Position numbers and translations under genes: made by a program. From Bacilli bacterium (lineage in GTDB: Bacteria; Bacillota_I; Bacilli_A; RF39; UBA660), in the NCBI GenBank assembly GCA_017484205.1, contig JAFUTO010000013.1, forward strand, positions 217 to 64,216: a stretch of 64,000 nucleotides of DNA, given 5' to 3'. Positions within the stretch are counted from its first letter, which is position 1. Every line of letters begins with the position of its first letter. Below are positions 17,686 through 60,545 of the stretch, piece after piece. Under the pieces are notes generated by a model. It was given only the letters and a program-made list of their open reading frames with translations, ran no database searches and was not told where the DNA came from.

Positions 17686-18318
17686 ATGAAAAAAATATTT
17701 ATATTTTTATTAGCCTTAAATCTATTGCTTATAATTCCAGTTAAAGCGGAGGAACTAGACCTTGCTCCTAATGCTAAGAGTGCCATTTTAATAGAAGCAA
17801 GTACTGGTAATATATTGTATGAAAAAAATAGCCATGAAAAATTGCCGCCAGCTTCTATGACTAAGATGATGAGTATGTTAATTATATTAGAAAGTATTGA
17901 TAAAGGTATCATAAATTGGGATGATATAGTAACTGCATCAGCTAATGCATCTAGCATGGGAGGAAGTCAAATACTTTTAGAGACAGGAGAGGAAATGAGT
18001 GTTTCTGATTTGTTCAAAGGTATAGCTGTTGCTTCAGGAAATGATGCAGTAGTTGCTTTAGCAGAAGCCATTGCAGGAACAACATCAGAATTTGTAAATA
18101 TGATGAATGAAAGAGCAAGTGAGTTAGGATTACAAGATACATATTTTAAAAATCCACATGGACTAAATGATACAAATCACTATTCTAGCGCTCATGATAT
18201 GGCTATGATAGCAAAGGAACTTGTTAAACATGAAAAAGTATTTGAATATACTTCTATATATGAAGATTATTTGAGACAAGGTACAAATAGAAAATTATGG
18301 TTAGTTAATACAAATAAA
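17686..18318 (+). pseudogene. dacF: 5' part of dacF-like serine D-Ala-D-Ala carboxypeptidase (S11), interrupted by the ICE; reads through to a stop at 18372
   Basis: Signal peptide, SxxK (ASMTK), SGN, ends WLVNTNK at attL; continues at 60039. Confidence 0.88.
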
Positions 18319-18342
18319 GTCGTATGTAAGTTTTACCATAAA
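18307..18342 (+). repeat. attL: core AATACAAATAAA (18307-18318) plus element-side arm GTATGTAAGTTTTACCATAAA (18322-18342)
   Basis: Core matches 60027-60038 at 11/12; arm is the reverse complement of 60011-60031 at 19/21. Confidence 0.88.
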
Positions 18343-18458
18343 GGTAGTTTTGGCTTATATTTCAATGGCTAAATGATTTTTGGAGATTATACTGTTTTGA
18401 TAAAAGTGCATATTTTTGAAAGTTGTTATCTATACTTTATTAGAAAGTGAGGGTAACA

Positions 18459-18563
18459 ATGAACAAAATTATTATACCTAAAAATATTCAAATAGAAATG
18501 ATGAAATTTTTCTTAAAAACAAGCATACCTAGAATTTTAGAATCAAATATCAAATCTATTTAG
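18459..18563 (+). CDS. 34-aa peptide upstream of the recombinase (candidate directionality factor/regulator)
   Basis: MNKIIIPKNIQIEMMKFFLKTSIPRILESNIKSI; GAGGG RBS; below ORF-track cutoff. Confidence 0.55.
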   Translation: MNKIIIPKNIQIEMMKFFLKTSIPRILESNIKSI

Positions 18564-18584
18564 TTAGAATAGAGGAGATATAAA

Positions 18585-20051
18585 ATGGAAGAAAAGATTG
18601 TTACAGGTATTTACATTCGTGTATCAACAGAAGATCAAGCAAAGGATGGTTTTTCAATTCATGCACAAAGAGAAAAATTAACAAAGTATGCAGAGGCGAA
18701 CGATTGGCATATATATGATTATTATGTTGATGATGGAATAAGTGGTAAGAATTTAGATGGAAGACCTGAAGTAACAAGATTGCTTAATGATGTAAAAGAA
18801 GGAAAAGTAAATAATGTGTTAATCTATAAACTTGATAGATTAACAAGAAGTGTTAGAGATTTGATATATTTGATTGAACTATTTGAAAAGCATAGTTGTA
18901 CATTCAATTCCCAAACAGAAAAGATTGATACATCAAATGCGGTTGGTAGAATGTTTGTTAAGATTATTGGAATATTTGCTGAATTTGAAAGAGAAAATTT
19001 AGCAGAAAGAGTATCTTTTGGATATGAGCAAAAAACTAGAGAAGGTAATTATACAAATACTAATGGTGTCTATGGATATGATTATATAATTGGTGAAAAT
19101 AGGATAGAAGTAAATGAATTTGAAAGAGAGCTAGTAAATAAAATATTTGATTTATATATAGATGGAGAATCTTATTTTAAAATAGCAAGAGCTTTTAACG
19201 CTGAAAATGTTCCTACAAAAAGAGGTGGGCATTGGTCTGCTACTACAATAAAATCAATTATAAATAATCCTTTATATATCGGCAAAGTTAGATATGGATT
19301 ACAAGAAAAAAATAAGGATAAAGCATTTACAGTTGATGGCAAAAATATTGAACCAATTGTTGATGAGGATAAATGGAATTTAGCAAATAATATAGTTGAT
19401 ACTAGAAAACATTATTGTTCAAGGAGATATCCTTCTGAAAATTCATACTATTTTCATATTATAAAATGTGATAAGTGTGATGGACATATTTCTGCTAGAC
19501 AGCAAACTCATAAAGGCAAATTATATATTTCATATAGATGCAATAATTCTGCTAGAGGATTTTGCGATGCAAAATGTTTCTCACATAATTTAATGGAAAA
19601 TGCTTTTTTAGAATATTTAGATACGTTAGAAACATTAAAACCAGATAAAAGTATTTTAGAAAATAAAAAAATTGTTAATTCTTATGAAAAAGAAAAAGAA
19701 GAAATAGAAAAAAAAATTACTAAATTAGAAGAAAAAAAGAAATCAGTAAGAAGTCAATTTATTAATGATTTAATTAGTATTGATGAATATAAAAGTATTA
19801 TAGATGAAATAGAAAAACAAGAAAATATGTGGAAAAATAAAGTAGCAACACTGATTGAAGATACCACCAATATTGTAGAGTCATATACATATGAAGATGT
19901 TAAAGAGATTGTTACAAATATAAAATTAAATTGGAAACATCTAACAAATAAGGAAAGACAGCAGTTTCTTGAAAGATTTGTGGATAATATAAAAGTTTAT
20001 AAAGTTAAAAATAAAGTAAAGATAAAATGTATAGATTTTAAAAAATTATAA
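18585..20051 (+). CDS. Large serine recombinase (integrase)
   Basis: YIRVST catalytic Ser, KLDRLTRS, recombinase domain, Zn ribbon CDKC...YRC, coiled coil. Confidence 0.95.
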   Translation: MEEKIVTGIYIRVSTEDQAKDGFSIHAQREKLTKYAEANDWHIYDYYVDDGISGKNLDGRPEVTRLLNDVKEGKVNNVLIYKLDRLTRSVRDLIYLIELFEKHSCTFNSQTEKIDTSNAVGRMFVKIIGIFAEFERENLAERVSFGYEQKTREGNYTNTNGVYGYDYIIGENRIEVNEFERELVNKIFDLYIDGESYFKIARAFNAENVPTKRGGHWSATTIKSIINNPLYIGKVRYGLQEKNKDKAFTVDGKNIEPIVDEDKWNLANNIVDTRKHYCSRRYPSENSYYFHIIKCDKCDGHISARQQTHKGKLYISYRCNNSARGFCDAKCFSHNLMENAFLEYLDTLETLKPDKSILENKKIVNSYEKEKEEIEKKITKLEEKKKSVRSQFINDLISIDEYKSIIDEIEKQENMWKNKVATLIEDTTNIVESYTYEDVKEIVTNIKLNWKHLTNKERQQFLERFVDNIKVYKVKNKVKIKCIDFKKL

Positions 20052-20373
20052 ATATAAAAGAATATAAAGTATTACAGATATAATTGCATTATAATTAATC
20101 AGTAAAAACTTAATTTATATAGTTGGAAAATGTATATTGAAAAATAATGTAATTAAGTAAATATATTAAATGTAATGCACCTAGTTAATTGTAATGTTTA
20201 ATTAATAATACTCAAAACATATTAATTGTTTATTAATATTATCATATAATTGATAATATTTTTTTGATGATGATATGTTGTGGAAAAAATTATAAAATGG
20301 AATTTACTAATTAATTTATTAGTGTTATAATTAAAATGTATGGTGTCGAATATTTTAGTGAGGAGGTATAGTT

Positions 20374-21060
20374 TTGACAAAGGTGGCAATTGAACTAAGA
20401 GAATGCAGTAAAATTTATAAAAGCAAGAAGTTAGATGATGTTGTTGCACTTAATAAATTTAGTTATATTTTTGAATATGGAAAGATTTATGGAATTATGG
20501 GAAAAAGTGGTGCTGGTAAAACAACATTACTCAATTTAATTTCAATGATTGATGATATAAGTGACGGAAAAATTTTAATAGATAATATTAGTGTGGATAA
20601 ATTGAAAATTAGTGAGAAAGCATTAAAGAGAAATAATGATATTGGAATGATTTTTCAAAATTATATGTTAAATGAATATATGAATTCTTATGAAAATATT
20701 GTGTTGCCAATGTTGATTAATAAAAATGTGGATAGACGTAATCGAAAAGAAAATGTTACTAAACTAATTAATATGGTAGGATTACCCGACAAGTTAAAAA
20801 GATATCCATCTGAACTTTCTGGCGGTGAAAAGCAAAGAATTGCTATAGCTCGTGCATTAGCTAATGATCCAAAAATAATATTAGCAGATGAACCAACTGG
20901 AAATTTGGATGAAGAGAATGAAACATATATATTTAAATTACTTAGAAAATTTGCGGAAGATGGTAAATGTGTAATTGTGGTAAGCCATAGTAATATCATA
21001 AAGAAATATGCTGATATAATAATAAACATTAGAAAAGGTGAACTATATGTCAATAAGTGA
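20374..21060 (+). CDS. ABC transporter ATP-binding protein (LolD/MacB type)
   Basis: GKSGAGKTT, LSGGEKQR, ILADEPTGNLD. Confidence 0.93.
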   Translation: MTKVAIELRECSKIYKSKKLDDVVALNKFSYIFEYGKIYGIMGKSGAGKTTLLNLISMIDDISDGKILIDNISVDKLKISEKALKRNNDIGMIFQNYMLNEYMNSYENIVLPMLINKNVDRRNRKENVTKLINMVGLPDKLKRYPSELSGGEKQRIAIARALANDPKIILADEPTGNLDEENETYIFKLLRKFAEDGKCVIVVSHSNIIKKYADIIINIRKGELYVNK

Positions 21061-22243
21061 TATTATACATTTATCGTTTTTCAATTTTAGGAAACATTTA
21101 AGTAATTGGCTTATAATATTAATGTTAACTATTTCATCTGTAATCACAATAGTTGGATTTTCTTATTATAATTCTATTCATAAATTTTGGGATGACTGGT
21201 TGAAAAATTCATATGATTTTAGACTATATTTAATTTCATATGACTATGATCATTATACTTATGATGAAATAAAAGAAAATTTATTGAATAATGAACATAT
21301 TGTTGATGTATTTAAGTACACTGAACTCATGGTTGTTGGTAATGCTGTTGATTTCATAACTGTTGATGTCGATGGTGAGACTAAAATTTTAGGTACTGTT
21401 GCTAGTACCAAAAAAATATTAAAAGGTAATGATTTAGGAGAAAAAAAATATGAAATAATCTGTCCATCACATTTTTTACCGAAATCTAATATTCAAAATG
21501 GTCAATATGATAAAAATTTGGAGGTCGATATATCTGCGAATATTGGAGATGTTATACGTTTTGAGCTTTTTCCTAATACAAAAAACAGTCCAATGGTTAA
21601 TATGACATTAGTTGGTGTGTACGATGAAGATTATGATTATTCTGATATAAATATATGCTATACAAATCATGAAACTATTAGTCAAATTAATAGAAAATAT
21701 CAGTCGAATGTGGTTGATGAAGGTAGAGGAATATACATTTTAATAGACAATACTAATAATATCGATAATATATATGAAGTGGATGGTGTTTATGAAATGT
21801 TTGCTATGAAGCAAATAAGGACTGATGTAGCTGATAATGTATTTAAAGTAACTAGTATTTTTACAATTGTATCATATATTTTAACTGGTGTATTATTGCT
21901 GATTATGTTTAATAAAAAGTTTAGAAATGAGTATAGAAATTACGGATTGCTATTAGCTTTAGGATATGAAAAGAAAACTATTAAACTAATTTCATATTTA
22001 GAAAATTTATTTATAATTGTTACATTTTTTATAATAGCTAGTATTCTAAATGTAGTTGTTTTGAAGAACTTTACAAAAATATTTTTATCTAATCAAATGC
22101 AATTATCAAAAATTAATATAGGTATATCACTAATCGCGTTACTATTTAGCACAATTGTTTTATTAATAATTGTATATATTTTTAGTTATAGGAATTCAAA
22201 GAAAATAGAAGAAATGAATATTATTGATGTATTAAGAGGCTAA
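21047..22243 (+). CDS. FtsX/MacB-like ABC permease
   Basis: N-terminal TM, large extracytoplasmic loop, three C-terminal TMs with YGLLLALGY. Confidence 0.8.
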   Translation: MSISDIIHLSFFNFRKHLSNWLIILMLTISSVITIVGFSYYNSIHKFWDDWLKNSYDFRLYLISYDYDHYTYDEIKENLLNNEHIVDVFKYTELMVVGNAVDFITVDVDGETKILGTVASTKKILKGNDLGEKKYEIICPSHFLPKSNIQNGQYDKNLEVDISANIGDVIRFELFPNTKNSPMVNMTLVGVYDEDYDYSDINICYTNHETISQINRKYQSNVVDEGRGIYILIDNTNNIDNIYEVDGVYEMFAMKQIRTDVADNVFKVTSIFTIVSYILTGVLLLIMFNKKFRNEYRNYGLLLALGYEKKTIKLISYLENLFIIVTFFIIASILNVVVLKNFTKIFLSNQMQLSKINIGISLIALLFSTIVLLIIVYIFSYRNSKKIEEMNIIDVLRG

Positions 22244-22245
22244 AA

Positions 22246-23217
22246 ATGCTTAAAACTAATTTAAATTATTGTATACATAATATTAATTTTAGGAAATATT
22301 TATTAATATTTTTTATAATTAATTTATCATTAGTATGTTCTTTATTGTATTATAATTATATTGATAATAATATTAATAATATTACTGGTTCATCTCAGTA
22401 TAGAACATTATATGTTAATATTACTGCTGAGCAATATGATATTTTTCAAGAAAAATATGATTTTAATAGTTATGATAGCATAGAAATATATGCTGTCGGA
22501 AATTATTATGCTAATGATCAATTAGCTTTTAACTTAAATATTCCTGCAGAATCAATTAATATTGATAATTCATATGATAACTATGTCATTTTTAGTAATA
22601 ATGCTGAATTGTGTAAAAAAGGAAAAATTGTTATTGATGATGTCATAATTACTATTGTTCCAATTGAGTCAGATTATGAACTTTCATTTACTAACTATGC
22701 TACAGCAAAAATGTTCATAAAAAAAAGAATTGTTGAAGATTTTACTATAAAAATAGTTTTAGAAGATAATTTAAAAACTGAAATTATTAAAAGTGAACTA
22801 AAAGATGGAGCGTATGATGTTTATCAAATTAATATCAACGAATATGAGTATAATGCGTATTATAAATTAAAATTACAAGTAGATGTGATTGTTAAATTAG
22901 AATTTGTATTTGTATTTATTATAATTATTTTTATTTCAATTCAGATGGTTGTAGAACAATTAAAAGAATTACAAATTCTCTATAAACTAGGATATTCTAA
23001 TAATAAAATTTTTAGTTTTATATTTATATCTAATTTATATATTATTATTTTTACAAGTATTGTTATATTAATTAGCCAATTTGTAATAAAAAACTTTATA
23101 AATGGAATTTCATATTTATTTAACTTAAGTACAATCTTATTACCTGTATCTTTTGAGATAGTGGTTTCGTCTCTTATAATTTATATTTGTATTAATTTAT
23201 TATTTAAAAGGAGTTGA
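22246..23217 (+). CDS. FtsX-like ABC permease 2
   Basis: Same topology, ELQILYKLGYS motif. Confidence 0.7.
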   Translation: MLKTNLNYCIHNINFRKYLLIFFIINLSLVCSLLYYNYIDNNINNITGSSQYRTLYVNITAEQYDIFQEKYDFNSYDSIEIYAVGNYYANDQLAFNLNIPAESINIDNSYDNYVIFSNNAELCKKGKIVIDDVIITIVPIESDYELSFTNYATAKMFIKKRIVEDFTIKIVLEDNLKTEIIKSELKDGAYDVYQININEYEYNAYYKLKLQVDVIVKLEFVFVFIIIIFISIQMVVEQLKELQILYKLGYSNNKIFSFIFISNLYIIIFTSIVILISQFVIKNFINGISYLFNLSTILLPVSFEIVVSSLIIYICINLLFKRS

Positions 23218-23223
23218 TGTTTA

Positions 23224-24027
23224 ATGTCCAAAAATAAAATTTTGGCGATAGTTTTAATATTATTATTAGTGCTTATTTCCTTAATATTTTTCTTTAAAAA
23301 AGATTCTGTTGATTATGATAATATAGTTGATAATAATCCCTTTAAAGTGGAAAATCGTGTTATCAATTTAAATAATAAGAAAACGAATGCTGAAACCGCG
23401 TATTTATTGTATTCAGACCATGATTATAAATATTTTATAAATCAAAATCCTAAAAATATGTACGTATTATTAAGTGAAGTAGGTATTATAAATGATAAAA
23501 TATATAAAATTGCATTGGATAATTTAAAAAATAATAAATATAAAATTTGTGTTGATAATAATAAAAATAGTTTATATATGAATAATATTATAAAAAGTTT
23601 ATATATGGAAGATGTAAAAATATCTGATATATCACCTTATGTTGAAATTTATAAAGAGTCAAATGATGTTTCTTACATTATAGATGAATATGTTTATATT
23701 AAAGATGAGAGTATAAAAAACAAATTATATTATACAGATAAATATAACACAAGCATTTATTTGGATGGAATTTCTAGCGTTAAAATTGCATATGAAAATC
23801 AATACGTTGAATTGTCATCAATTCTAAAAGACGGCGACTTTATTGCTGATACTATTTATTATAATATTAATATAAAAAATGAAAAATATGAATATTATCC
23901 TATGGGCGAAGTATTTGATCCTTACAATTTATTTTCCGTAGTATATGGAAAACTTAAAATTGCTAAACAATTTAGAAATAATGAATTATATTATGTAATA
24001 TCATTATTCGGTGATAGCGATGATTAA
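23224..24027 (+). CDS. Membrane-anchored hypothetical protein
   Basis: N-terminal TM; last gene of the ABC operon. Confidence 0.6.
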   Translation: MSKNKILAIVLILLLVLISLIFFFKKDSVDYDNIVDNNPFKVENRVINLNNKKTNAETAYLLYSDHDYKYFINQNPKNMYVLLSEVGIINDKIYKIALDNLKNNKYKICVDNNKNSLYMNNIIKSLYMEDVKISDISPYVEIYKESNDVSYIIDEYVYIKDESIKNKLYYTDKYNTSIYLDGISSVKIAYENQYVELSSILKDGDFIADTIYYNINIKNEKYEYYPMGEVFDPYNLFSVVYGKLKIAKQFRNNELYYVISLFGDSDD

Positions 24028-24082
24028 GAATATAAAAGACTTAAATTATTAAAATCGCTTTAAAATATTGATAAAAAATAAC

Positions 24083-24162
24083 AAATCTGATAGAATAGAA
24101 TTGTAATTAAATCTCGTTTAAGCAGTGCCTGATTATAGTTGCTAGAAAGGAGATTTTATGAA
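24083..24162 (+). repeat. 80-bp leader repeat copy 1 (-10, 5'UTR, RBS, start codon)
   Basis: Identical to 24660-24739. Confidence 0.92.
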
Positions 24163-24604
24163 GAAAATAAGGTTGTTTCTATTTGCATTGATAATGATGC
24201 TACCTATTTCCATGGTATCTGCTTCACAATTATATTCCGACCTTACATATGTACAAATTGGATATGGTTCATCTCTTACTGGTGGTAGTCGTAACTTGCC
24301 TGCTGGATATAACTTTTTCTATTTAAAAAATTATTATTTCTATGATCAAAGTGGTAATGTTACATATAGTGGATATTCAAAAATACGTACATCATATATA
24401 GAAGATCATGCAACATATTCAACATTGATAGGTTATGCTGATAAAGACGTATCTCATTTAGATTCATTTTTATTGGATTGGGGATATTTAGCGGCTGGCA
24501 CAAGATATTATTCTTTTTCTACTAAAATAAATGGTACAAGTTATCTTGGTCAATATGCATCACCTGTAAAAATACAAGTTAATTCTAATTATAGATTTTA
24601 TTAA
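24158..24604 (+). CDS. Secreted protein, paralog A
   Basis: Sec signal ending VSA; shares AGYN, TYSTLIGY, WGYL..G.RYYS.ST.INGT with the 24735 protein. Confidence 0.75.
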   Translation: MKKIRLFLFALIMMLPISMVSASQLYSDLTYVQIGYGSSLTGGSRNLPAGYNFFYLKNYYFYDQSGNVTYSGYSKIRTSYIEDHATYSTLIGYADKDVSHLDSFLLDWGYLAAGTRYYSFSTKINGTSYLGQYASPVKIQVNSNYRFY

Positions 24605-24659
24605 TCTAAAAATAGCTCTATGTGATAATGCATAGAGTTATTTATTGAATTTTTTTTAT

Positions 24660-24739
24660 AAATCTGATAGAATAGAATTGTAATTAAATCTCGTTTAAGC
24701 AGTGCCTGATTATAGTTGCTAGAAAGGAGATTTTATGAA
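24660..24739 (+). repeat. 80-bp leader repeat copy 2
   Basis: Identical to 24083-24162. Confidence 0.92.
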
Positions 24740-25196
24740 AAACGCAAAATTCATAGTAATAGCTGTACTATTATCGGTATTTTGTATGACAAATGTATCT
24801 GCATCAATCATAAATAATTATGATGACCCAATTGATATTCCATATGGTTCTACAGTAATTGATATGGATCATATTAGATACTTTAGTGCTGGATATAATT
24901 ATTTTAGAATGGAAGTACAATATTTGTTAAGTTCTACGGGTGCTCTAAATAATGTAACTGTTAGTAAAGTAAGAACAACTTATATAGAATCTTCTGGTAC
25001 TTATTCTACATTAATTGGATATCAAGATGCCTCTGTCTCAACTAGCGCCCCAGTCTTTGCGATTCGTTGGGGATATTTGTCATCTGGAAATAGATATTAT
25101 TCTTATAGCACCGAAATAAATGGTACTGACTATTATGGTATTCGTCCTTTACATATGTATAAGCGTTCGAATTCAGGCGATTCATTTTGGGGATAA
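24735..25196 (+). CDS. Secreted protein, paralog B
   Basis: Sec signal ending VSA; homologous to the 24158 protein. Confidence 0.75.
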   Translation: MKNAKFIVIAVLLSVFCMTNVSASIINNYDDPIDIPYGSTVIDMDHIRYFSAGYNYFRMEVQYLLSSTGALNNVTVSKVRTTYIESSGTYSTLIGYQDASVSTSAPVFAIRWGYLSSGNRYYSYSTEINGTDYYGIRPLHMYKRSNSGDSFWG

Positions 25197-25197
25197 A

Positions 25198-25226
25198 AAT
25201 AACCACCCTATATTAGGGTGGTTATT
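25198..25226 (+). terminator. Intrinsic (possibly bidirectional) terminator
   Basis: AATAACCACCCTA-TAT-TAGGGTGGTTATT hairpin. Confidence 0.75.
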
Positions 25227-25320
25227 AAGCAGTAATTTATTCGTATGGTTTCGAATAAATAAGAAAGAAATCTCTTTCTCACTATTAATTATATATATTT
25301 AATTAATTAATTCAATAGCA

Positions 25321-25352
25321 TTTGCACGAAATGGCGTTTTCCTTGCGTGAAA
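25321..25352 (-). repeat. 32-bp motif copy 1 (inverted)
   Basis: Reverse complement TTTCACGCAAGGAAAACGCCATTTCGTGCAAA matches the copies at 29026 and 30485. Confidence 0.85.
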
Positions 25353-25405
25353 ATAAGTAATAATTTCTATAAAATTTATTTTATTACACAAATTTATAAA
25401 TGTGC

Positions 25406-25434
25406 TTGACTATTAAAATTATAAATGCTATAAT
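25406..25434 (+). promoter_or_regulatory. sigmaA promoter of the YbfG-like gene
   Basis: TTGACT-17bp-TATAAT with extended TG. Confidence 0.75.
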
Positions 25435-25675
25435 TTACTTGACAAGTGATTATAGATATTGAACGGTATAGATTATAAAGTTTAGTTAATACTTAATAAT
25501 TTATGCTGTTTTTTCTTTATAATACTTCATATGTCCGGACTATGAAATATTATGTTATAAATATTTATATTCAATTTGTCAATAATATTTAATATTTATG
25601 AATAGAGAACGGATTTTATAACGGTATTTTGATCTTTCGATATATTAAATAATTAATATAAAAGGAGATGAAAAT

Positions 25676-28078
25676 ATGGCGTTAAACGCTACAACAACGG
25701 GTGATCCATACGTTGCTAATGTTCAAGAATGGGTCAATGACACATATAGTGGGAGGACAGGATATACAGAAATAACTGTAAACGGTCAAGTCGGTTGGAC
25801 AACAATTTATGCATTATTGCATGCACTACAAATTGAATTAGGCATAACTAATACTGCAAATAATTTTGGACCATCTACTATTTCATTATTTAATTCTAGA
25901 TTTCCAAATGGTGTGCAACAACAAACTGATGGTGATACTAGTTCAGATAACATTTATGGTATTATACAAGGAGCTTTGATTTGTAAGGGATATGATATAG
26001 GTGCTAATACACCGACATGTCATTTTTATAATGGTACAGGAACTGCTATAAGAAATTTAAAATCTGATGCGGGTTTAACTGATACTACATCAACAGTCAC
26101 ATTAAATATAATGAAAGCATTAATGTCTATGGATTATTTTTATTCATATGACACATCGGAAAGAACTCAAAATATTATCGCAATGCAGAGATATTTAAAT
26201 AGAAACTATGAAAACTATATAGGAATTAGACCTTGTGATGGAGTATATGGAAGAGGTACAAATGCTGCTCTTTTATATGCAATACAAGCAGAAGAAGGGA
26301 TGCCAACATCAGTCGCAAATGGAAACTGTGGGCCATCTACTAAAAGATGTTTACCATTAATACCATATTCTGGAGGCTACACAAAAAATGGTCAAACTTA
26401 TGGTGTTAATTATTATGGACAAGTATATAATAGTGGCAGTATAGATAAGTTTAAAATATTATTAAATATGGCGTTATATTTTAATGGATATGGCGACGGT
26501 ACAATATCTTCTATTATTGATACAAATATTGTAAGTTTATTCCAGAGTGATTATTCTATCTCAAATACTGGAAATGTAGATTATACAACTTGGTTGTCAT
26601 TATTAGTTAGTTGTGGAGATATTGAACGTTCTGCACTTGCTTGTGATTGTGCTACAATATTAACTCAAGCTAAGGCAGCGACTTTATTTAATAATGGTTA
26701 TAGATATGTTGGAAGATATTTATCTGGTACTGCAGCCGGTGGTGTAAGTAAAGCATTATCAAGAGAGGAATTACAAATAGCATTTAATAATGGTCTTAAT
26801 GTATTCCCTATTTATCAAAGTAGCGGAACAGATATAAATTATTTTACATACGAACAAGGTAAGTATGATGCAAAAGAAGCAATGAAATATGCTGATAAGT
26901 TAGGAATACCAAGTGATACTATAATATTCTTTGCTGTAGATTGTGATCCATTAGATTATCAAATTACACAAAATATCATTCCATATTTTAATGGAATTAA
27001 TAGTGTGATTGCAGGTTATGGTGTAGGTATATATGGTACAAGAAATGCTTGTTCTAGAATAAGTAATTTAGGGTATGCAAGTAACAGCTTTGTAAGCGAT
27101 ATGTCAACAGGATTTAGTGGCAATTTAGGTTTCAATATTCCTAGCAATTGGATTTATGACCAATTTACTACAATAACTGTTGGTAGTGGCGATGGACAAA
27201 TAGAAATTGATAAAGATGGATATTCATCAAATAATGCTAATAGTCATAACTCTTTTAATTCTATTACTACAGCTCCTTTAATTGCAAAAACGGCAGATTC
27301 GATACAAAAAATCTACGATTTAGCTATGAATTATACCGGTAATAATGTATCAAAAAGCACATTGCTAACTTTACAATATTTACGTTCTTATAAAGGACGA
27401 TATTCAAATTCATTTTGGGGTATAACTGCTGGTGAAATTAGTGATAATTTTTGCAATTATGTGAATACTAATTATCCAACTTTACCATTAACATTTTTTG
27501 AACCGGTTAAAGAAAAAGATGGTATCTTTGTTGAATACGAATTGGATCATATGTGTGCTACATTAAATGCTTTACTTTATGAAGTTGGTGAGGGAGAAAT
27601 ACCTGGGTTAGATTTTATAACTGATAATTTTGCAAGTTGGGTTGGTGATTGTGCCTCTTTCTCTGGCGATATTTATACTGCTAGTGATAATGGTGAAACT
27701 AATTTACAAGATTGGGCTAATGATAATATTTGCCAATTAAATGATACATCATTTGATTTTAGTGATTATGCTGCTGATATTGATGCAGAAAATATTTATT
27801 TTAAAATAAATAGCGGCATTAGTTTACCAATTGCATTTCTTACTTATTTTGCAACTATTTTAAATCAAGATGCTGATGTATATACAAGAACGAGTACATG
27901 GGTAAATAATCACTCTACAGGTTTCTTGGAGGATAGAATTGCTTTGTTAAATTCAACTGATTTTACAATTTATGCTGCCGTTCTACAAAGAAGGCTTCCA
28001 TATAATTCAACTTATTTTGCAATAGCTCTAAATGCATTTCAAACATATCTTTATACAGAATATGGTAATGGTAGGTAA
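25676..28078 (+). CDS. YbfG/FadG-like protein: PG-binding repeats + DUF1906 glycoside hydrolase-like domain + C-terminal domain
   Basis: VQEWVNDTYSG..GWTTIYALLHALQIELGI, PCDGVYG, ACDCATIL, YVGRYL, SDMSTGFSGNLG; no signal peptide. Confidence 0.85.
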   Translation: MALNATTTGDPYVANVQEWVNDTYSGRTGYTEITVNGQVGWTTIYALLHALQIELGITNTANNFGPSTISLFNSRFPNGVQQQTDGDTSSDNIYGIIQGALICKGYDIGANTPTCHFYNGTGTAIRNLKSDAGLTDTTSTVTLNIMKALMSMDYFYSYDTSERTQNIIAMQRYLNRNYENYIGIRPCDGVYGRGTNAALLYAIQAEEGMPTSVANGNCGPSTKRCLPLIPYSGGYTKNGQTYGVNYYGQVYNSGSIDKFKILLNMALYFNGYGDGTISSIIDTNIVSLFQSDYSISNTGNVDYTTWLSLLVSCGDIERSALACDCATILTQAKAATLFNNGYRYVGRYLSGTAAGGVSKALSREELQIAFNNGLNVFPIYQSSGTDINYFTYEQGKYDAKEAMKYADKLGIPSDTIIFFAVDCDPLDYQITQNIIPYFNGINSVIAGYGVGIYGTRNACSRISNLGYASNSFVSDMSTGFSGNLGFNIPSNWIYDQFTTITVGSGDGQIEIDKDGYSSNNANSHNSFNSITTAPLIAKTADSIQKIYDLAMNYTGNNVSKSTLLTLQYLRSYKGRYSNSFWGITAGEISDNFCNYVNTNYPTLPLTFFEPVKEKDGIFVEYELDHMCATLNALLYEVGEGEIPGLDFITDNFASWVGDCASFSGDIYTASDNGETNLQDWANDNICQLNDTSFDFSDYAADIDAENIYFKINSGISLPIAFLTYFATILNQDADVYTRTSTWVNNHSTGFLEDRIALLNSTDFTIYAAVLQRRLPYNSTYFAIALNAFQTYLYTEYGNGR

Positions 28079-28137
28079 CAATAAGCAATAATTGTATTAA
28101 AAAAATTTATATGGTATAATGTCATTGGTGAGTTTAC

Positions 28138-49612: not shown

Positions 49613-49888
49613 ATGGATTTTTCAAAATTAAATCTAGAATTTGCTAATATGCAAACTACTATTTCAAAATATAATAAAATAATTAGTTCAATTAATATTA
49701 AAATAAAGGAAAATATAAAAAATATTAATAAGTATGAAACAAAAATAAAAAATACAAAGGATAAACTAGAAAAGGAGTTAGTACATATCTATGTTGCATC
49801 TATGAAAAAAGAAAATGAATTTTTAGATAGTTTAATCAAGGAGGCTCAAATGGATGAACGAGAAAAAGGGAATATTAAATCAGTATAA
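49613..49888 (+). CDS. Coiled-coil hypothetical protein
   Basis: GGAGG RBS; in operon. Confidence 0.6.
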   Translation: MDFSKLNLEFANMQTTISKYNKIISSINIKIKENIKNINKYETKIKNTKDKLEKELVHIYVASMKKENEFLDSLIKEAQMDEREKGNIKSV

Positions 49889-50252
49889 TGAAGAAGAAAC
49901 AAGGCAACTATTAAATGATAAAGTTAAAATGGTTTATATTGATAATGGTGTAGAAGAAGTCGTTGCAAGGTATGAAGATTTACCAGATATCATTGTTGAT
50001 GTAAATGAAAAACTAGGTCATAATCAATATTTAAAAGTATATGATTTTGAAAATCCTAATTTTGATAAACCGCTTTTAACAACAACAGGGTATTTTTTAG
50101 ATAATTGCGATCCAGATGTTAGAAAAGATATTATTGATAAATTAATACAATTACAGATGGGAGAAATAGAGGTTAGAGACTATAAAGTAATTAATGAAGA
50201 TATGCTAGATGATATTAGAGTTGCTATGGAACAAGAAGAAATGGAAAAATAA
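49854..50252 (+). CDS. Acidic hypothetical ICE protein
   Basis: GGAGG RBS; ends EEMEK. Confidence 0.65.
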   Translation: MNEKKGILNQYNEEETRQLLNDKVKMVYIDNGVEEVVARYEDLPDIIVDVNEKLGHNQYLKVYDFENPNFDKPLLTTTGYFLDNCDPDVRKDIIDKLIQLQMGEIEVRDYKVINEDMLDDIRVAMEQEEMEK

Positions 50253-50254
50253 TT

Positions 50255-52243: not shown

Positions 52244-52263
52244 AAATGTAAGGAGGGTTAAGA

Positions 52264-55200
52264 TTGAATGAAAAATTTGAATATGATTTTTTAAAGATAA
52301 GAGATGATACATTATCTTTAATAAGAGATAGTAGTGATGAGTGGAATAAGTTTATTGTATATTGGTCAAAGATATTAGATAAATATAGTGTAGATAATGT
52401 TTTTAATTTATATTTTTATAATCCTGATGGTAAAGTTTTTATGACTTTTGATGAATGGAATAATGATATAGATAGAAGAATTAAACCTAAAAGCAAAGGG
52501 ATACCAATTTTGATAAATGGTAGAAAAAATTATGTATTTGATATAAAACAAACTTATGGTAAAGATTATAATGATTGGAATTATAATCACAAAATAGATT
52601 TTGATTTATTATATTTTTATAGAGTAAAATATAATATTAATCTTGATAATGATTTATCAGGTAATATGAGGTATTATAATGTATTTAATTTGATAGCAGA
52701 AAAACTAATCGATAACAATTATATAGATATGGATGAAAAAGAAGTGAAGTTAATCAAAAATATGATGACTTCACTTTTCCTTTCTAAAACTAGGTTCAAT
52801 ATTGCAGATTTGCCAAATTGTTATGATGATATTGCAGGTTTAGATAATGAAATTATTTTAAAATGTATGGAAATAGCTAATAAAGAAACTGAAGTTATAT
52901 ATGAAGATTTTATGTTTAATGCTAATTCAATAAATAAAGTAGTAAATGAGATAAAAAATACTATATCTGGTCAATTTACTTCTAATGATTTTATGAGTGA
53001 TGATGATAGACAAAGTTATTTAGAGTCTATGGAAATGGAATATGAATATCATTATGATCTATTAGATAAAATATATAATAGATATTTCAATGAATATAAA
53101 CAATCTATTGCTAAAGAAGACTATCAAGATAATGATACAATAGAAAGTGATATAAGTGAAGAATTTAAAGATATAATAAAAAAAACAGAAGTTATTAAAA
53201 GTAATAACAATATATCTAATGAGAAAGAACACAGTAGAAGAGATAGTAACTTTGAAATTGAACAATTATCTTTATTTGAATCTAGAGAAGAATTATTAGC
53301 AAAAAAGATATGTGATATATTTAATTCGTTTGATACTGATTTTAAAAACACTTTTGAGATTAAACAAATTGAGTTACAAAAATGGGAACATATATCTAGC
53401 AATAAAAGAAATCTAACTATTTTATTGTCAAGTCCTCTTGCTGATATGTCTGATAATGCTTTCTCATATTTTAATAAAGAAAACGAAAAAAGGTTAAATG
53501 AAGAAATAAGTAATAATTATTTTTTAAATGGTTTAAATAAGGATTCTGATTTTGATATAATTTTATCGCCAGAATTAATACATATATATTGGCATAATTT
53601 TGATGAAAAAGAATTTAATTTAGAAGTCTCTAGTACAAGAAAAGTAGAAGAAAAAAATAATGAAATTGATTATATTGTGAAAGAATCAGAATTTATTCCA
53701 ACTGAAAACGGAATTGTAACTAAAGAAATAAGTAAAGCTAGTTATGATAAATCTGGTAGTGAAATAAAAAAAGATAATAATTTATATCCTGCAATTAATT
53801 ATCATATAGATGATAGTAGAGTTGATGGAAGTTTTGGGGCTAAATCAAGATTTGAAGATAATATAAAAGCAATAGAACTATTAAAGATATTAGAAAGTGA
53901 AAATAGATTTGCTACAAAAGAAGAACAAGACATTTTATCAAAATATGTTGGATGGGGTGGAATTGCTGATGCTTTTGATGAAAATAAAGACAATTGGAAA
54001 AATGAAAGAGATAAGTTAAAAAATTTACTAAGCAATGAAGAATATAATGAGGCGAGAACATCAACTCTTACTTCTTTTTACACACCTAATATAGCAATTG
54101 ATGCAATATATAAAACTTTAGAAAAATTTGGATTTGAAAAGGGAAATATTTTAGAACCATCGATGGGTGTTGGTAATTTCTTTGGTAGATTGCCTAATGA
54201 TTTTAGTAGTTCAAAATTATATGGTGTTGAAATAGATAGTATAAGTGGTAGAATAGCAAAAAAATTATACCCAAATGCTAAAATAGAAATAAATGGATAT
54301 GAGAATTCTAAAGTAGCTGATAATTTTTTTGATATAGCAATTGGTAATGTACCTTTTGGTAATTATAAAGTAGTGGACAAAAGATATAAAGATAATTTTA
54401 TGATTCACGATTATTTTTTTCAAAAAACATTAGATAAAGTAAGAAGTGGTGGAATTATTGCATTTATTACTACTGATGGGACAATGGATAAAAAAGATAC
54501 TAAAGTAAGAGAATATATTGCAAAACGAGCTGAACTTATCGGAGCAATCAGATTACCTAATAATACATTTACAGGTAATGCAAATACAAAAGTAACTACT
54601 GATATTATTTTTTTTAAAAAGCGTGAAGAATTAAAACTAGATGTTAGTGATGAAAGATGGATTTATACTGATGAATATGCTGATGGTATAACTATAAATA
54701 ATTATTATATTGATAATCCTAATATGATGTTAGGAAAAATGGAATTAAGAACTTCGGCATGGGGATATGAAAATACTTTAAATCCATCAGAAGAAGATTT
54801 TAATGTATTAATAGAAAAGGCAATATCTAATTTACCATCTAATATATACGAAAAGGCAATATATGAAGTATCAGAACAAAATAGTGAATATGATATTTTA
54901 GAAGCAGATGATAACATAAAAAATGATGCTTTTGTTATTATCAGTAAAGATGGTAAAGATATTATATATAAAAGGCAAGATTCTAATTTAGTTCCCTATA
55001 CTATACAAGATGGAATGACAGCTAAAAGAATAATTGGAATGTGTAATATTAAAAAAGCATTACATAAAGTATTTGATGTGCAATTAAAAGATGGTAGTGA
55101 TGAAGAACTTTTATTGGCACAAAAAGAATTGAGTGATGAATATGATACATTCAAGAAGAAATATGGATATATAAATGACTCTGCTAATGTAAGAGCATTT

Positions 55201-58200
55201 AGTGATGATCCAGACTATTATTTACTTACATCTATTGAAAATAAAATAAGTAGGGATGAAGAAGATGATAAACCACAATATGAAAAAGGCGATGTATTCA
55301 CAAAAAGAACTATTAGAAAAAGCAAAGATACTAGTTCAGCGAATACAGCAGAAGAAGCATTAAGATATTCTTTAAATAATCGCGGTTGTGTTGATTTTGA
55401 ATATATGAAAACTCTTTATGTTCATACCGAAGAAGAAATTAAAAATGAACTTGAAGGATTAATATATCAAGACCCAGAAAAACTAAATGATTCTAATAAA
55501 GGTTGGGTTATTTCTAGTGAGTATTTAAGTGGAAATGTAAAGCATAAACTAAATTATGTAAAGTCTATAAATAGTGATGGTAAGTTTGATAAAAATATAG
55601 AAGCATTAGAAAAAGTACAACCAGCACCACTTGAATATGATGAGATAAGTGTTAAGTTAGGCAGTACATGGATACCAGAAGATGTATATCATGATTTTTG
55701 TTGTGATTTATTAGATATAAGTGCTTATAATTCTAGTAAATTAAAAATTAAATATGTACCATCTGGTAATGTGTGGCTTTTTCAAGCAAGTGGATTATAT
55801 AGTTGGGGAATAAAAAATACAAAGACTTGGGGAACAAGTAGAGTTGATGCTTTATCTATAATAAAAAATACTCTTAACTTACAAAGCATAACTATATATG
55901 ATACTTTAGATGATGATAGAAAGGTAGTTAATCCGGTTGAAACTGCAATTGCAAGAGAAAAGCAAGAAGCAATTAAACAAGAATTTAAAGAATGGTTATG
56001 GAAAGATGAGGAAAGAAGAAATAGACTTGTAAAAATATATAATGAACGATTTAATTGTATGAGAGAAAGAGAATATGATGGAAGTCATTTAACTTTTGAT
56101 GGCATGAATCCAAGTATAGAACTTCGTGAGCATCAAAGAAATGCTATTGCTCGTGTATTATATGGAGGTAATACTTTACTTGCACATGCAGTAGGTGCTG
56201 GAAAAACTTATGAATGTATTGCTAGTGCTATGGAATTAAAAAGATTAGGTATTGTTAATAAACCAATGTTTGTTGTACCAAATCATTTATTAGGTCAATG
56301 GGCTAGTGAAATATTAAAGTTATATCCTACTGCTAATGTATTAGTTGCAACTCAAAAAGATTTTGAAAAAACTAAAAGAAAAAAACTTATGGCAAGAATT
56401 GCAACAGGCGAATGGGATGCAGTATTAGTTGCTCATTCTAGTTTTGGTTTAGTTCCAATGAGTAAAGAATATGAAAAAAAGCATATAGAAAAACAAATTG
56501 AAGAAGTTACTGAAGCTATTGAAAGAATAAAAGCTGAAACAAATGAAACATTAAGTGTAAAGAAATTAGAACAAATGAAAATAAGTATGCAGGCAAGATT
56601 AAGATTACTATTAGATGATTCTAAAAAAGATGATGTAGTAACATTTGAAGAATTAGGTGTAGATGAATTGATAGTAGATGAGGCACACATGTTTAAAAAT
56701 TTACCTATGTTTTCAAAAATAAGAAATGTATCTGGTATCAATAATACTGAATCTAAAAAAGCAACTGATTTATATATGAAAATTAGTTATATATTAGAGA
56801 ATAATAATGGTAAAGGTGCCATATTTGCAACAGGAACTCCAATATCTAATTCAATGGGAGAATTATATGCTATGCAAAAATATTTGCAACCAAATAGATT
56901 AAAAGAAATGGGATTAGAACATTTTGATGAGTGGGCATCTACATTTGGAGAAATCGTTAATAGTTTTGAGATTGCTCCCGATGGAAGTGGTTTTAGAACA
57001 AAAACAAGATTTGCTCAATTTTTTAATATTCCAGAACTTATGGGATTATTCAAAGAAGTCGCTGATATAAAAACATCTAAGATGTTAGACTTACCAGTTC
57101 CTAAATTAAAAGATGGTGAGTATAAAACTATTGTTGCACCAAAAAGTGATGAACTTGCTAAATATGTAGAAAGTTTAGCAGAACGAAGTGAAATTATTAG
57201 AAATGGCTGTGATCCAAGAGAGGATAATATGCTACTTGTTACCAATGATGGTAGAAAAGCAGCACTCGATTTAAGACTTATAGATCCTACTATGCCAGAT
57301 TTGAAAGATTCTAAAGTAAATATAGCAGTTGAAAATATATATAAAATATGGTTAGAAAATAAAGAGGACAAGTTAACGCAACTTGTCTTTTGTGATTTAT
57401 CTACTCCAAAAGTAGATGGAGAATTTAATGTATATGATGATATAAAAAATAAATTAGTTGAAAAAGGAATACCAGAGGAAGAAATAGAATTCATACATAA
57501 TGCTAAAACTAATCCACAAAAATTAAAATTATTTGAGGATATGAGAAATGGTACTAAAAGAATCTTAATTGGTTCAACAGCTAAAATGGGAGCAGGTATG
57601 AATGTTCAAGACAAGTTAGTTGCTTTACATCATTTAGATTGTCCTTGGCGACCATCTGATATAGAACAAAGAGAAGGTAGAATATTAAGACAGGGAAACC
57701 AAAATGAAGAAGTTGAAATATATAGGTATGTTACTGAAGGCAGTTTTGATGCATATTCATACCAATTAATTCAAACTAAATCAACTTTTATAAATCAAAT
57801 TATGTCTAATAGCAATAGTGGTGGAAGAACTGCTGAAGATTTAGATAGGGATACTCTTACTTATGCCGAAGTAAAAGCTTTAGCTAGTGGTAATCCTTTA
57901 ATTTTAGATAAATATAAAATTGAAAATGAATTAAAACAATTATATTTATCAAAAAGTAGATATGATAAAACGCATATTGAAATGGATATTAAATATAATA
58001 GAGAATTACCAACACAATTAAATAATCAAGAGAATTATTTAGAGGCATTAAAAAATGATATTACAAAAGTGGAAGATTTATCTGCTGATAATTTTAAGAT
58101 GGTAGTTGGAAATATTAAATTTGATTCTAGGAAAGAAGCAAGTACAAAATTATATGAAATGATGTCTATATTAAAAACGAGTGAAGAAACAAAAATGGGT

Positions 58201-58566
58201 GAAATAAGTGGATTTGATATTATTGGTATTAAAGATGAATTATTATATTCACCAATTGTGTATTTGAAAGGGACAGGAAAATATAAAGTAGAAGTAAGTA
58301 AAACTGATGAAATAGGAAATATTATAAAAATGGAAAATATGTTGAAAAGTTTTGAAAGCAAAATTGATACAGTCATAGAACAAATTGAATATACAAAAAA
58401 GCAAATAAATGATGCTAAAGATGAATTAGATAAACCTTTTCAATATACTGAAAGAATAAGAGAACTTCAAAAAGAAAAAGCAAAAATTGATAGTAAATTG
58501 GATTTAGATAAGGTAGAAACCAATCTTTTTTCATCAAATGATATTGAAGATAATATGGAAAGATAA
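52264..58566 (+). CDS. Giant N6-adenine methyltransferase + SNF2 helicase (DarB-like), with ArdC-like N-terminus
   Basis: [26 protein letters not shown]; [31 protein letters not shown]. Confidence 0.9.
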
Positions 58567-58868
58567 AGAATATAAAAAATGAAAAAAAGTCTTGCAAAAT
58601 TTCTTGTTTTAAGTGATTAATTAAATGACAAAAAAACACTATTAAACATATCTAATTTGCGAGTGATTAAATTTAATATGCGAGTTTAGACAACTATAAG
58701 ACTAAAAATATAAAAGCTCTCAGAATGGCTAAAAATAGTGTTTTAGAAAGGAGATATTTGATGCGAGATGAAATATTAAATTAATCCTGAACTTATGGAT
58801 GAAGATTTAAAAGAAAAGATAACAGATGAAAAATTTGAAATATTAAAAAATAGAAGGAGGAATTTTAT

Positions 58869-59387
58869 ATGTATGTAACTGAAGCAAATGACCAAGTTAG
58901 ATATTTATTTGAAGAATTATCTTCAAAAGACAATATCGTAAAAATGAGATTTTTATTATATGTTATGAATCAACTAGCTAATGACCAAATTAATAGTACA
59001 AATGAGGCGAATCCAAATACTAGGGAAGATCCAGAGTTAGAAATATTTAATATTGATAGTATTGGATATTCAGGAGATTATATAAGATTGTTTTTAGAAT
59101 ATAATGTTATGTGTTACAATCGAATTATTGATAATTATAAAACTTATGTAAATGAAAATACTGTTATAGGAATTGAAAATAGTGAAGAAGATGAGAAAAT
59201 ACAATCTAATTTTGAAACTTTAGACTTTTTAGATAAATTAGATGTAGTAAGTGAATTACTTATAAGATATGAAAGTGAAAATTATTTTGACGAAGAAGTC
59301 AATATAGTACTTATTAATCCATTTTCAAATGGATATGATATAGCAAGTAGAATACAAAAATATAAAAGCTGGATAAAGGAGTCATAA
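58869..59387 (+). CDS. Hypothetical protein
   Basis: AGGAGG RBS, 172 aa. Confidence 0.65.
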   Translation: MYVTEANDQVRYLFEELSSKDNIVKMRFLLYVMNQLANDQINSTNEANPNTREDPELEIFNIDSIGYSGDYIRLFLEYNVMCYNRIIDNYKTYVNENTVIGIENSEEDEKIQSNFETLDFLDKLDVVSELLIRYESENYFDEEVNIVLINPFSNGYDIASRIQKYKSWIKES

Positions 59388-59404
59388 TAAAGGCTCTTTT
59401 AATT

Positions 59405-59962
59405 TTGGAAGGAGGAATACTTATTGAAGATTTAATTGTAAATAATTTGAAGTTAATAAATTTTGTAATGAAAAAGATGAATTTAAATAGTAGTATAGAT
59501 TTTGATGATTATTATCAAGTAGGTACTATTGGATTAATATACGCTTCTAAAAACTATAATTCTAATTTAAAAATCAGTTTTTCTACCTATGCCTATACAT
59601 GTATAAAAAATGAAATATTAAAATATATAAAAAGTAATCAAAATAAAAAATATGATATATCTTTAGATGAGCAAATATATGATAACTTGATTCTAGAAGA
59701 AACTATTGCTGATAATAGTATTGAAAATGCTATAGATACTATAATTATTGAAGAAAGTAATAAAGAATTGTATAGAGTTCTTAATGATGAATTAACCGAT
59801 GACGAAAAAATTATTGTAAAAAAATTATATGGTTTAGGATGTGAACAATATAAGCAAACTGAAGTAGCTAAAAAACTTAATATCCCACAATATAAAATTT
59901 CGAGAATAAGAGATAGATTATTTAAAAAAGTAAAAAAATATTTAAGGAATAACTATCATTAA
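59405..59962 (+). CDS. Sigma-70 factor resembling sporulation SigE/SigK
   Basis: NNLKLI, GTIGLI, FSTYAYTCIKNEIL, DISLDE, YGL..KQTEVAKKLNIPQYKISRI; true start may be ATT at 59423 after GGAGG. Confidence 0.82.
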   Translation: MEGGILIEDLIVNNLKLINFVMKKMNLNSSIDFDDYYQVGTIGLIYASKNYNSNLKISFSTYAYTCIKNEILKYIKSNQNKKYDISLDEQIYDNLILEETIADNSIENAIDTIIIEESNKELYRVLNDELTDDEKIIVKKLYGLGCEQYKQTEVAKKLNIPQYKISRIRDRLFKKVKKYLRNNYH

Positions 59963-60010
59963 TTTCCCTTTAATGTTATAATGAAAGTACATAGATGATT
60001 GATATTTGAT

Positions 60011-60038
60011 TTTATTGTAAAACTTAAATACTAATAAA
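60011..60038 (+). repeat. attR: element-side arm TTTATTGTAAAACTTAAATAC (60011-60031) and core AATACTAATAAA (60027-60038)
   Basis: Matches attL core and arm; dacF frame resumes at 60039. Confidence 0.88.
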
Positions 60039-60545
60039 CTAGTGCGATTTTATAAAGGAGTAGATGGCTTAAAAACAGGTTATACTAAAGAAGCTGGGTA
60101 CTGTCTAACTGCTACAGCAAACAAAGGATTTAGAGTCATTGCTGTTACTATGGGGGAACCTACTTCAGAACTTAGAAACAAAGAAGTAAGTTCTATGCTA
60201 GATTATGCTTATGCACAATATAGATTAGATACTATTTTGACTAAAAATGAAGTGTTAGGTAGGGAAGAAGTAGAAAGAGCTAAAACAAAATATACTGAAC
60301 TAGTTCCAAAAGAGAATATAACAATATTAAATAAAAAGTTGGATAAAGATAAAGACTATGTATATACTATGATAGTAGATAAGTTAAAGGCTCCAATAAA
60401 AGCAGGTGATAAAGTAGGTGAAATTCAAGTTTTAGAAGATGGGTTATTAATTAAAACAGTTGATATGACTGTTAAAGAAGATATTAAAAAAGCTAATATA
60501 ATTGAATTGTATTTTAGATATTTAAAAGAGACTATTACAATATAG
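60039..60545 (+). pseudogene. dacF: 3' part of dacF-like D-Ala-D-Ala carboxypeptidase
   Basis: LVRFYKGVDGLKTGYTKEAGYCL (KTG motif) and PBP5-type C-terminal domain. Confidence 0.9.

Follow-up and report, generated by a model that had tools for sequence, protein, structure and literature searches.

A serine-recombinase element with conjugation genes splits a DacF-type carboxypeptidase gene in a Bacilli genome that carries sporulation genes

The window analyzed here is a 64,000-nucleotide stretch of contig JAFUTO010000013.1 (assembly GCA_017484205.1) from a bacterium of the class Bacilli (GTDB lineage RF39, UBA660). Its central feature is an S11 D,D-carboxypeptidase gene that is split at 18318/60039 by an integrated element of 41,720 bp, which carries conjugation genes and a large serine recombinase (LSR). 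The coordinates were rechecked in the 64-kb window, and the split gene, its junctions and the element were located as follows.

17643..17670, + strand: promoter-like box TCATAAA-N13-CATAAATT, preceding the split gene
17686..18318, + strand: 5' part of the DacF-type S11 carboxypeptidase gene, with signal peptide, SMTK and SGND (Pfam Peptidase_S11, 219 bits, profile positions 10-198 of 239)
18307..18318, no strand assigned: attL core AATACAAATAAA, with the inferred crossover dinucleotide AA at 18316-18317
18319..60038, + strand: integrated element of 41,720 bp, bounded by two junctions, with nearly all long open reading frames (ORFs) on the + strand
60027..60038, no strand assigned: attR core AATACTAATAAA, with the inferred crossover AA at 60036-60037
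60039..60545, + strand: 3' part of the carboxypeptidase gene, with the KTG motif and PBP5_C (S11 profile positions 203-238)

The 5' part ends with ...WLVNTNK, and its reading frame extends 17 codons into the element, to a stop at 18372. The 3' part opens at 60039 with LVRFYKGVDGLKTG and stops at 60545. When 17686-18318 and 60039-60545 were joined in silico, a single frame of 379 amino acids (aa) was obtained, and the joined protein was an S11 fold with SxxK, SxN and KTG, followed by the PBP5 C-terminal domain (Pfam and translation). Neither half would be a working enzyme, because SMTK and SGND lie on the left and KTG lies on the right. Both halves were undamaged. The result was in agreement with the initial annotation of this DNA, which had described an in-frame join of 379 aa with SxxK and SxN on the left side and KTG on the right, and a core AATAC[A/T]AATAAA common to both junctions. 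All coordinates of the halves were confirmed, the motifs could be read from the joined translation, and the core was found at 18307-18318 and 60027-60038.

The attP site rebuilt from the two ends of the element formed an inverted repeat with imperfect arms, in which 20 of 25 positions pair around a centre between two A's (60036|60037 = 18316|18317), inside the core stretch that is identical in both copies. None of the 63,940 other centres in the window reached 20/25, and the best value over 1,065 windows of 120 nucleotides (nt) was 18. An arm match of 19/21 had been proposed earlier; the symmetry centred on AA was retained, but that count was not reproduced, since 16/21 of the innermost positions and 18/20 of positions 6-25 were paired. 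The sole A/T difference between the two cores lies left of the symmetry centre, as a 2-bp crossover predicts. The junctions have the layout of LSR att sites, in that attP has AA as its 2-bp centre and arms that are imperfectly inverted. The left junction, ...AATACNAATAAA|GTCGT..., was also present in genome G025 and in the loci L039-L042, L045, L080-L084 and L116. Furthermore, attB was conserved as GT.AATAC.AATAAA.T.GT in 13 intact orthologues. Judging from these sites, precise excision at the AA dinucleotide would restore the carboxypeptidase gene.

The principal genes inside the element are listed below.

18459..18563, + strand: conserved 34-aa ORF directly upstream of the recombinase, a candidate recombination directionality factor or regulator
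18585..20051, + strand: LSR of 488 aa (Pfam Resolvase 143.6, Recombinase 81.6 and Zn_ribbon_recom 24.6 bits)
20374..21060, + strand: ABC-type ATPase (Walker A GKSGAGKTT and LSGGEKQR read from the translation), followed by two membrane ORFs (21038-23217)
25676..28078, + strand: 800-aa protein with an Rv2525c-like glycoside-hydrolase-like domain and a peptidoglycan-binding domain
32674..36139, + strand: SpaA-repeat surface protein (962 aa) and sortase (203 aa), from family scans
38293..38694, + strand: single-strand DNA-binding protein (SSB), from a family scan
40143..41531, + strand: conjugation membrane protein resembling pLS20_p028 (81.4 bits, cut-off 150) and Mbov_0396 (54.5 bits, cut-off 70)
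41827..44328, + strand: VirB4-type conjugation ATPase (NCBIfam Mbov_0397 473.3 bits, cut-off 590; Pfam DUF87, TraG P-loop)
44510..45364, + strand: M23 peptidase (cell-wall hydrolase), from a family scan
50255..52243, + strand: type IV coupling protein of the VirD4/TraG type (Pfam T4SS-DNA_transf, 204 bits)
52264..58566, + strand: SNF2-type helicase protein of 2100 aa, from family scans
59405..59962, + strand: element-borne sigma factor (NCBIfam SigE/SigK about 92-93 bits, far below cut-off; Pfam Sigma70_r2 and r4)

The LSR was intact and full-length, and it lies 267 bp inside the left end of the element. Its Zn_ribbon_recom score was just below the cut-off of 25.3 bits. The closest solved relatives were the TP901-1 integrase and SPbeta YokA (73 bits for YokA), and the serine of YIRVSTEDQ was invariant across five LSR sequences. 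Family scans and junctions together identified an integrative element with conjugation genes and an LSR, as had first been annotated. It had further been described as a complete integrative and conjugative element (ICE), which is plausible from the gene content: the LSR, attL and attR, VirB4, the coupling protein, the membrane protein, the M23 peptidase and the SSB are all present. Completeness is only partly borne out, as no relaxase was recognized by Pfam or NCBIfam in the 28 element ORFs scanned, a set that leaves aside the ABC block (20374-23217) and most ORFs below 130 aa. A transfer module of the Mycoplasma ICE type (40143-44328) is here combined with a serine recombinase, with both family matches below their cut-offs. 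At the right end of the element (58869-59962), a 172-aa ORF of no known family lies beside the sigma factor, which was nearest to the SigE/SigK models without their N-terminal part.

The 34-aa ORF was found upstream of the LSR in seven genome loci and, by tblastn, in 17 metagenome loci, with LSR identities down to about 33%. Between the window and L039, about half of its changes were synonymous, as read from the alignment. The predicted complex of the 34-aa ORF with the LSR had an ipSAE of 0.58, compared with 0.00 for the best of three controls; the runs agreed in at least 78% of contacts, and the pLDDT of the partner was at least 64. Of 80 solved complexes, 58 attain the ipSAE mark used here, as do 2 of 110 mismatched pairs; scores of 0.60 or below include only 7 of the 80 solved complexes, yet both of the mismatches that pass. 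The prediction weakly supports binding of the 34-aa ORF to the LSR, and the ORF is a candidate directionality factor or regulator.

The host genome has three S11 paralogues, namely dacB beside spmAB, a copy between eno and gpm with no space for its own promoter, and the split gene. In G038, a complete genome of 2.4 Mb from the same class, the gene that matches the split one best stands in the row pdp, S11, spoIIAA, spoIIAB, sigF-like, spoVAC, with spoIIAA at 125 bits (cut-off 114.75) and spoIIAB at 186 bits (cut-off 135). We take the row pdp-S11-spoIIAA-spoIIAB-sigF to be the dacF arrangement of Bacillus subtilis. The split gene and the G038 gene were reciprocal best hits. Moreover, the joined protein clustered with the G038 gene and with a G030 gene near spoIIA (support 93/99), whereas the dacB-spm genes (97/96) and the eno-linked genes (100/100) formed two other clades. 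The tree comprised 32 S11 proteins of 17 genomes, with no B. subtilis reference sequence among them, and the dacA, dacB and dacF labels were assigned through synteny, the database matches carrying generic names. The reciprocal best hit, synteny and tree support the split gene as a DacF orthologue, so the early label "dacF-like" was borne out; a role in the sporulation of this organism may be inferred from that orthology. In the host genome the split gene is not adjacent to the sigF operon, and in its family it has moved out of the spoIIA operon. In B. subtilis, dacF is expressed in the forespore (sigma F and sigma G) and its single mutant is not known to have a phenotype, and dacB is a mother-cell gene. 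For Clostridioides difficile, DacF has been described as sigma-G controlled and dacB as sigma-F controlled (PMC13753750). Upstream of the split gene, two divergent VanY/LdcB-type carboxypeptidase genes adjoin it (16085-17596), and this neighbour was also present in G001.

The host genome is 1.27 Mb in 34 contigs, 92.5% complete and about 25% G+C, and many genomes of its family are 0.8-1.3 Mb and retain sporulation genes. The SigE-like and SigK-like genes of the host scored just under their cut-offs. A row of spoIIAA-like, sigF-like and spoVAC-spoVAD genes was found, and dacB was followed by two Gate-domain genes resembling spmA and spmB. In the 92.5%-complete genome, SASP (PF00269) gave no match and SpoIIAB gave no match above cut-off. 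The host is probably a reduced sporeformer, because Spo0A, SpoIVA, SigE/SigK-like genes, the sigF-like/spoVA row and the dacB-spm row are present. A host devoid of sporulation genes had been named in the initial annotation as an argument against any sporulation switch at this locus; such genes are present. In the sigF row (L050, on G000:C33), a 120-aa STAS-like ORF precedes the sigF-like gene, with spoVAC and spoVAD after it. At G000:C5:3347-3661, a SigK/SigE-like gene is represented by its N-terminal half (153.5 bits, positions 5-111), which runs into the end of a 3.7-kb contig, and full SigE-like and SigK-like genes are present elsewhere in the host. In the host flank of the window, a 597-aa HerA-type helicase is encoded at 8181-9974, for which the anti-phage HerA models gave 157-164 bits, far below their cut-offs.

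Related genomes that lack the element were compared, as had been proposed. Among 40 other genomes, 23 had an intact orthologue (377-410 aa), G025 had it split at the same codons, and G010 and G018 had it broken by contig ends, in G010 at the att place and in G018 elsewhere. The insert of G025 was 6.6 kb, with the same left end (GTCGTATGT...), the same AA centre (attP ...GACT AA AGTC...) and no conjugation genes; its LSR was 49% identical and lies at the opposite end on the opposite strand. A scan of one genome per species gave seven close LSRs. Six of them were preceded, at a distance of about 290 bp, by a dacF 5' half in the same orientation, and only L043 was not. Similarly, 12 of 13 evaluable metagenome loci with an LSR at least 51% identical were beside dacF halves, and the exception, L100, adjoins an unrelated gene in DNA richer in G+C. 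Together with the window and G025, an LSR was at the same dacF codons (WLVNTNK|LV) in 20 of 22 evaluable loci, a count of LSRs at least 49% identical in which some metagenome loci may duplicate contigs of metagenome-assembled genomes. The cargo at this site varied in size, from 41.7 kb in the window to 9.5 kb in L041, 6.6 kb in G025 and 3.2 kb in L095. The joined protein had no full-length match above 82% identity among the 120 matches listed. No locus with the right-end genes of the element upstream of the LSR, as expected of a circular form, was found among copies at least 51% identical.

The LSRs of L039, L040, L041, L042 and L045 were 99-100% identical as proteins, and the adjoining dacF 5' halves were only 47-64% identical; therefore, the unit entered different species recently. 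Shortened LSR frames (252-404 aa) were found in 5 of the 11 evaluable dacF-associated metagenome copies, and the other six had 477-489 aa. In the shortened copies the gene can therefore no longer be rebuilt and is dispensable at least for a while, which is unsurprising because the genome has three S11 paralogues. The 3.2-kb remnant at the same dacF-type site (L095, 606-3803) has an LSR stump of 268 aa, and a 552-aa sugar-kinase/phosphatase-like ORF on the opposite strand. In L043 (9861-11464), the 34-aa ORF and the LSR are 99.7% identical in DNA to L039, and no dacF half lies within 10 kb upstream. The left flank there contains xseA, xseB, a SpoIVB-like peptidase gene and a 261-aa ORF (names read from translations), and L043 is possibly a secondary site, or else a nested insertion.

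The search for sequencing runs gave four DNA runs of one study and no RNA run. The DNA runs, three of them possible sources of the window DNA, were available as Logan contigs. Contigs of all four runs bridged attL. The depths of the bridging and the flanking host contigs were alike in three runs (66 versus 66.8, 33 versus 33.6, and a single contig at 16.8), and in the fourth run the bridging contig was 640 nt at a depth of 5. Among the rows listed, outside which lie 1,512 further loose ends, there was neither a loose end at 18318 nor a joint across it. Contigs drop rare variants, and therefore this blank says nothing on excision; only the integrated form was seen.

The box at 17643-17670 has a spacing and shape that we take to be the sigma-E consensus pattern, and it differs from the box before the host spoVAC gene, GTATA-18-CATAATA, presumably a textbook sigma-G box. 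The strict motif [GT][AC]ATA[AT][AT]-N13/14-CATAnnnT had 85 matches on both strands of the host genome. A filter for matches followed within 8-70 nt by a ribosome-binding site with an ORF of 50 aa or more left five, those before the split gene, hrcA, murG, an uncharacterized ORF of 292 aa and an internal start in dnaE. This filter missed spoIVA. Since the strict motif also lies before hrcA, murG and the internal dnaE start, the motif alone is no marker of sporulation genes. The SigE-like box pointed out in the initial annotation is present and partly conserved among orthologues, but its motif also precedes housekeeping genes.

An ordinary site-specific insertion, at a dedicated attB of this LSR clade in the dacF codons WLVNTNK|LVRF, is probably, though by no means surely, what the locus represents. 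The LSR with a directionality factor, for which the 34-aa ORF between attL and the LSR is a candidate, would excise the element at AA and leave an intact gene. The att site might serve as a safe harbour, because its conserved sequence would permit landing in many hosts, and in a dispensable gene staying inserted would cost little. Restoration of the gene would then be a by-product of excision for transfer and not a required sporulation switch. The initial annotation had favoured a developmental switch like that of skin; precise excision would indeed restore a DacF orthologue in a host with sporulation genes, but developmental control is on balance less likely. Several observations weigh against ordinary insertion. 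The host carries Spo0A (254 bits) and SpoIVA (710 bits), both above cut-off. Of 19 orthologues of the split gene, 17 have a CATA at a similar distance from their ATG, and among these 17 eight have TCATwww-N13/14-CATA and six the strict form; host spoIVA is preceded by TAATATA-13-CATATAGT, and host dacB has CATA in the corresponding position. Immediately behind the 5' half with its promoter come the 34-aa ORF and the LSR, in the same orientation and without a terminator-like site. The 9.5-kb element of L041, a decayed copy, keeps an intact LSR, the 34-aa ORF and two right-end genes (homologues of the 172-aa ORF and the sigma factor, at 8361-9451 of its element). In three related genera (G004, G011 and G013), the dacB orthologue is split by a different LSR family. 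In G010 the gene breaks exactly at the inferred crossover AA (L034, the end of G010:C15, and L035, the end of G010:C1), with a 77-nt exact overlap to a contig that continues the intact gene, which suggests that two forms exist in that sample and that the assembly graph branches at the att site; the contig for the other branch was not in the G010 bin. In addition, no intact allele of the same species was found, the best full-length match to the 5' half being 91% identical among the 120 matches listed.

Part of this evidence would fit a mother-cell switch like that of skin, which is possible but clearly the less probable account. A sporulation promoter would read through the 5' half into the 34-aa ORF and the LSR, the element would be excised in the terminal mother cell and the carboxypeptidase gene rebuilt there, and the spore would retain the integrated copy. 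The sporulation genes, the conserved CATA as -10 with its partly conserved sigma-E-like -35, the LSR unit retained in L041 and the split dacB all favour it, and so does the co-oriented LSR without a terminator-like site, an arrangement shared with skin and yin (according to the yin paper, the recombinase gene of both lies behind the 5' part and points the same way). The dacF-type gene has left the spoIIA operon in this family, so its control may have changed and a rewiring to the mother cell is possible, and the weak predicted binding of the 34-aa ORF to the LSR (that ipSAE of 0.58) points the same way. However, the split gene is a DacF orthologue, dacF is a forespore gene in B. subtilis, and excision in that compartment would cost the element its place in the germ line. 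DacF is controlled by sigma G in C. difficile (PMC13753750), the LSR gene is shortened in 5/11 metagenome copies, near-identical LSRs beside divergent dacF halves indicate a recent horizontal arrival and not a long co-inheritance, the strict motif also precedes hrcA, murG and the internal dnaE start, and by eye there was no clear mother-cell promoter before the 34-aa ORF. Somewhat more doubtful is a still-transmissible conjugative element that doubles as a sporulation-timed switch by promoter capture, from the 5' half to the 34-aa factor and the LSR. An improbable alternative is a fixed, immobile insertion by which the gene is permanently inactivated in this lineage. The attL bridges in contigs of four runs, three at the depth of the flanking host, the existence of decayed relatives and the lack of a recognized relaxase agree with it, whereas the LSR of 488 aa, VirB4, the coupling protein and both att arms are intact here and both gene halves are undamaged; to our knowledge, no classical relaxase has been recognized in conjugative elements of the Mycoplasma type either. 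Very improbable is a reversible forespore switch resembling active lysogeny, with excision once dacF expression begins, persistence in the spore as a circle that does not replicate, and re-integration by the LSR alone at germination. By analogy, DacF orthology would imply forespore expression, read-through from the 5' half would tie excision to the expression of dacF, and an LSR integrates without a directionality factor (PMC12286644). Excision in the forespore would nevertheless mean that the element is lost from the line of descent unless re-integrated, a high risk. No attP form was found among LSR loci at least 51% identical, and shortened LSR genes stand against this reading too. It is also without precedent among the sporulation elements compared (gin, SPbeta and yin papers), every one of which interrupts a mother-cell gene, with excision shown to be specific to the mother cell.

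The elements that split dacB may be a second family of intervening elements. The gene is interrupted inside the codons of the SGND motif by an element of about 15 kb, with an LSR of 561-568 aa beside the 3' half, and the element also has a coupling-protein-like gene and helicases. In G013 the dacB halves lie on separate contigs (L037 and L038). In the other two genomes they were located as follows.

L032 (G004:C2:3500-21500), 1053-1391 and 16393-17142: dacB halves, with spmA/spmB after dacB in G004
L033 (G011:C7), 398-742 and 15891-16658: dacB halves

The element in the window is a further serine-recombinase element living inside a sporulation gene. D,D-carboxypeptidase genes, of the dacF type here and dacB in relatives, thereby join the sporulation landing sites of serine-recombinase elements. 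The locus is also a natural example of interchangeable attL-int-attR modules, in which the cargo of one unit ranges between that of a full conjugative element and that of remnants of 3 kb. In practical terms, the locus offers a new serine recombinase for which attB and attP are both defined, together with the 34-aa ORF as a candidate partner. The host family is made up of gut Bacilli not yet in culture, whose genomes of some 1 Mb have kept sporulation genes. If excision were timed by sporulation, this would be the first conjugative element acting as a developmental switch and the first such element in a cortex carboxypeptidase gene, and a sister system might exist in dacB of the related genera.

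Elements of this kind have been studied in several sporeformers. The pairs of element and gene in the literature searched are skin/sigK, SPbeta/spsM, vfbin/spoVFB, gin/gerE, yin/yabG and phi3T/kamA, besides vrin and a spoVK site. In the literature search, no intervening element paired with dacB was encountered, and dacB, dacF and dac were absent from the available main texts of the gin, SPbeta and yin papers, supplements aside. Skin in sigK of B. subtilis and C. difficile is likewise an LSR element in a sporulation gene whose excision rebuilds the frame. Skin itself, a defective prophage, interrupts a mother-cell sigma gene that is essential, and it has been shown to excise in the mother cell. 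In contrast, the window element has conjugation genes, and its target is a DacF-type carboxypeptidase gene. SPbeta in spsM is closer in some respects, being an active mobile element with an LSR (SprA), a small directionality factor (SprB) and two possible triggers of excision, and its YokA (SprA) was among the nearest solved relatives of the window LSR. However, SPbeta is a phage with a mapped mother-cell sprB promoter, and the 34-aa factor of the window is a candidate without a recognized promoter.

The gin element of B. cereus ATCC 10987 lies in the sporulation gene gerE and, as here, carries serine recombinase genes without being a phage. Its authors state that it has no structural conjugation genes, whereas the window element has VirB4, the coupling protein and other transfer genes. 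The yin element in yabG of C. botulinum V73 is an LSR-type insertion in a non-essential sporulation gene, of which integrated and circular forms coexist, and its attB is conserved in other strains; it is described as a prophage in one strain, whereas units of the window type occur in at least 20 loci with varied cargo. Mycoplasma ICEs use a DDE transposase. Their Mbov_0396 and Mbov_0397 families were the best family matches of the membrane protein and VirB4, below the cut-offs, and no classical relaxase was recognized here or is known in them, but the window element integrates through an LSR at a defined site, unlike those ICEs. Interchangeable attL-int-rdf-attR units have been swapped experimentally in B. 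subtilis (Suzuki et al. 2019, PMC6957869). The likeness to the present locus lies in one recombination unit with varied cargo, of 41.7 kb in the window and 9.5, 6.6 and 3.2 kb in the remnants, and here the exchange appears to have occurred naturally.

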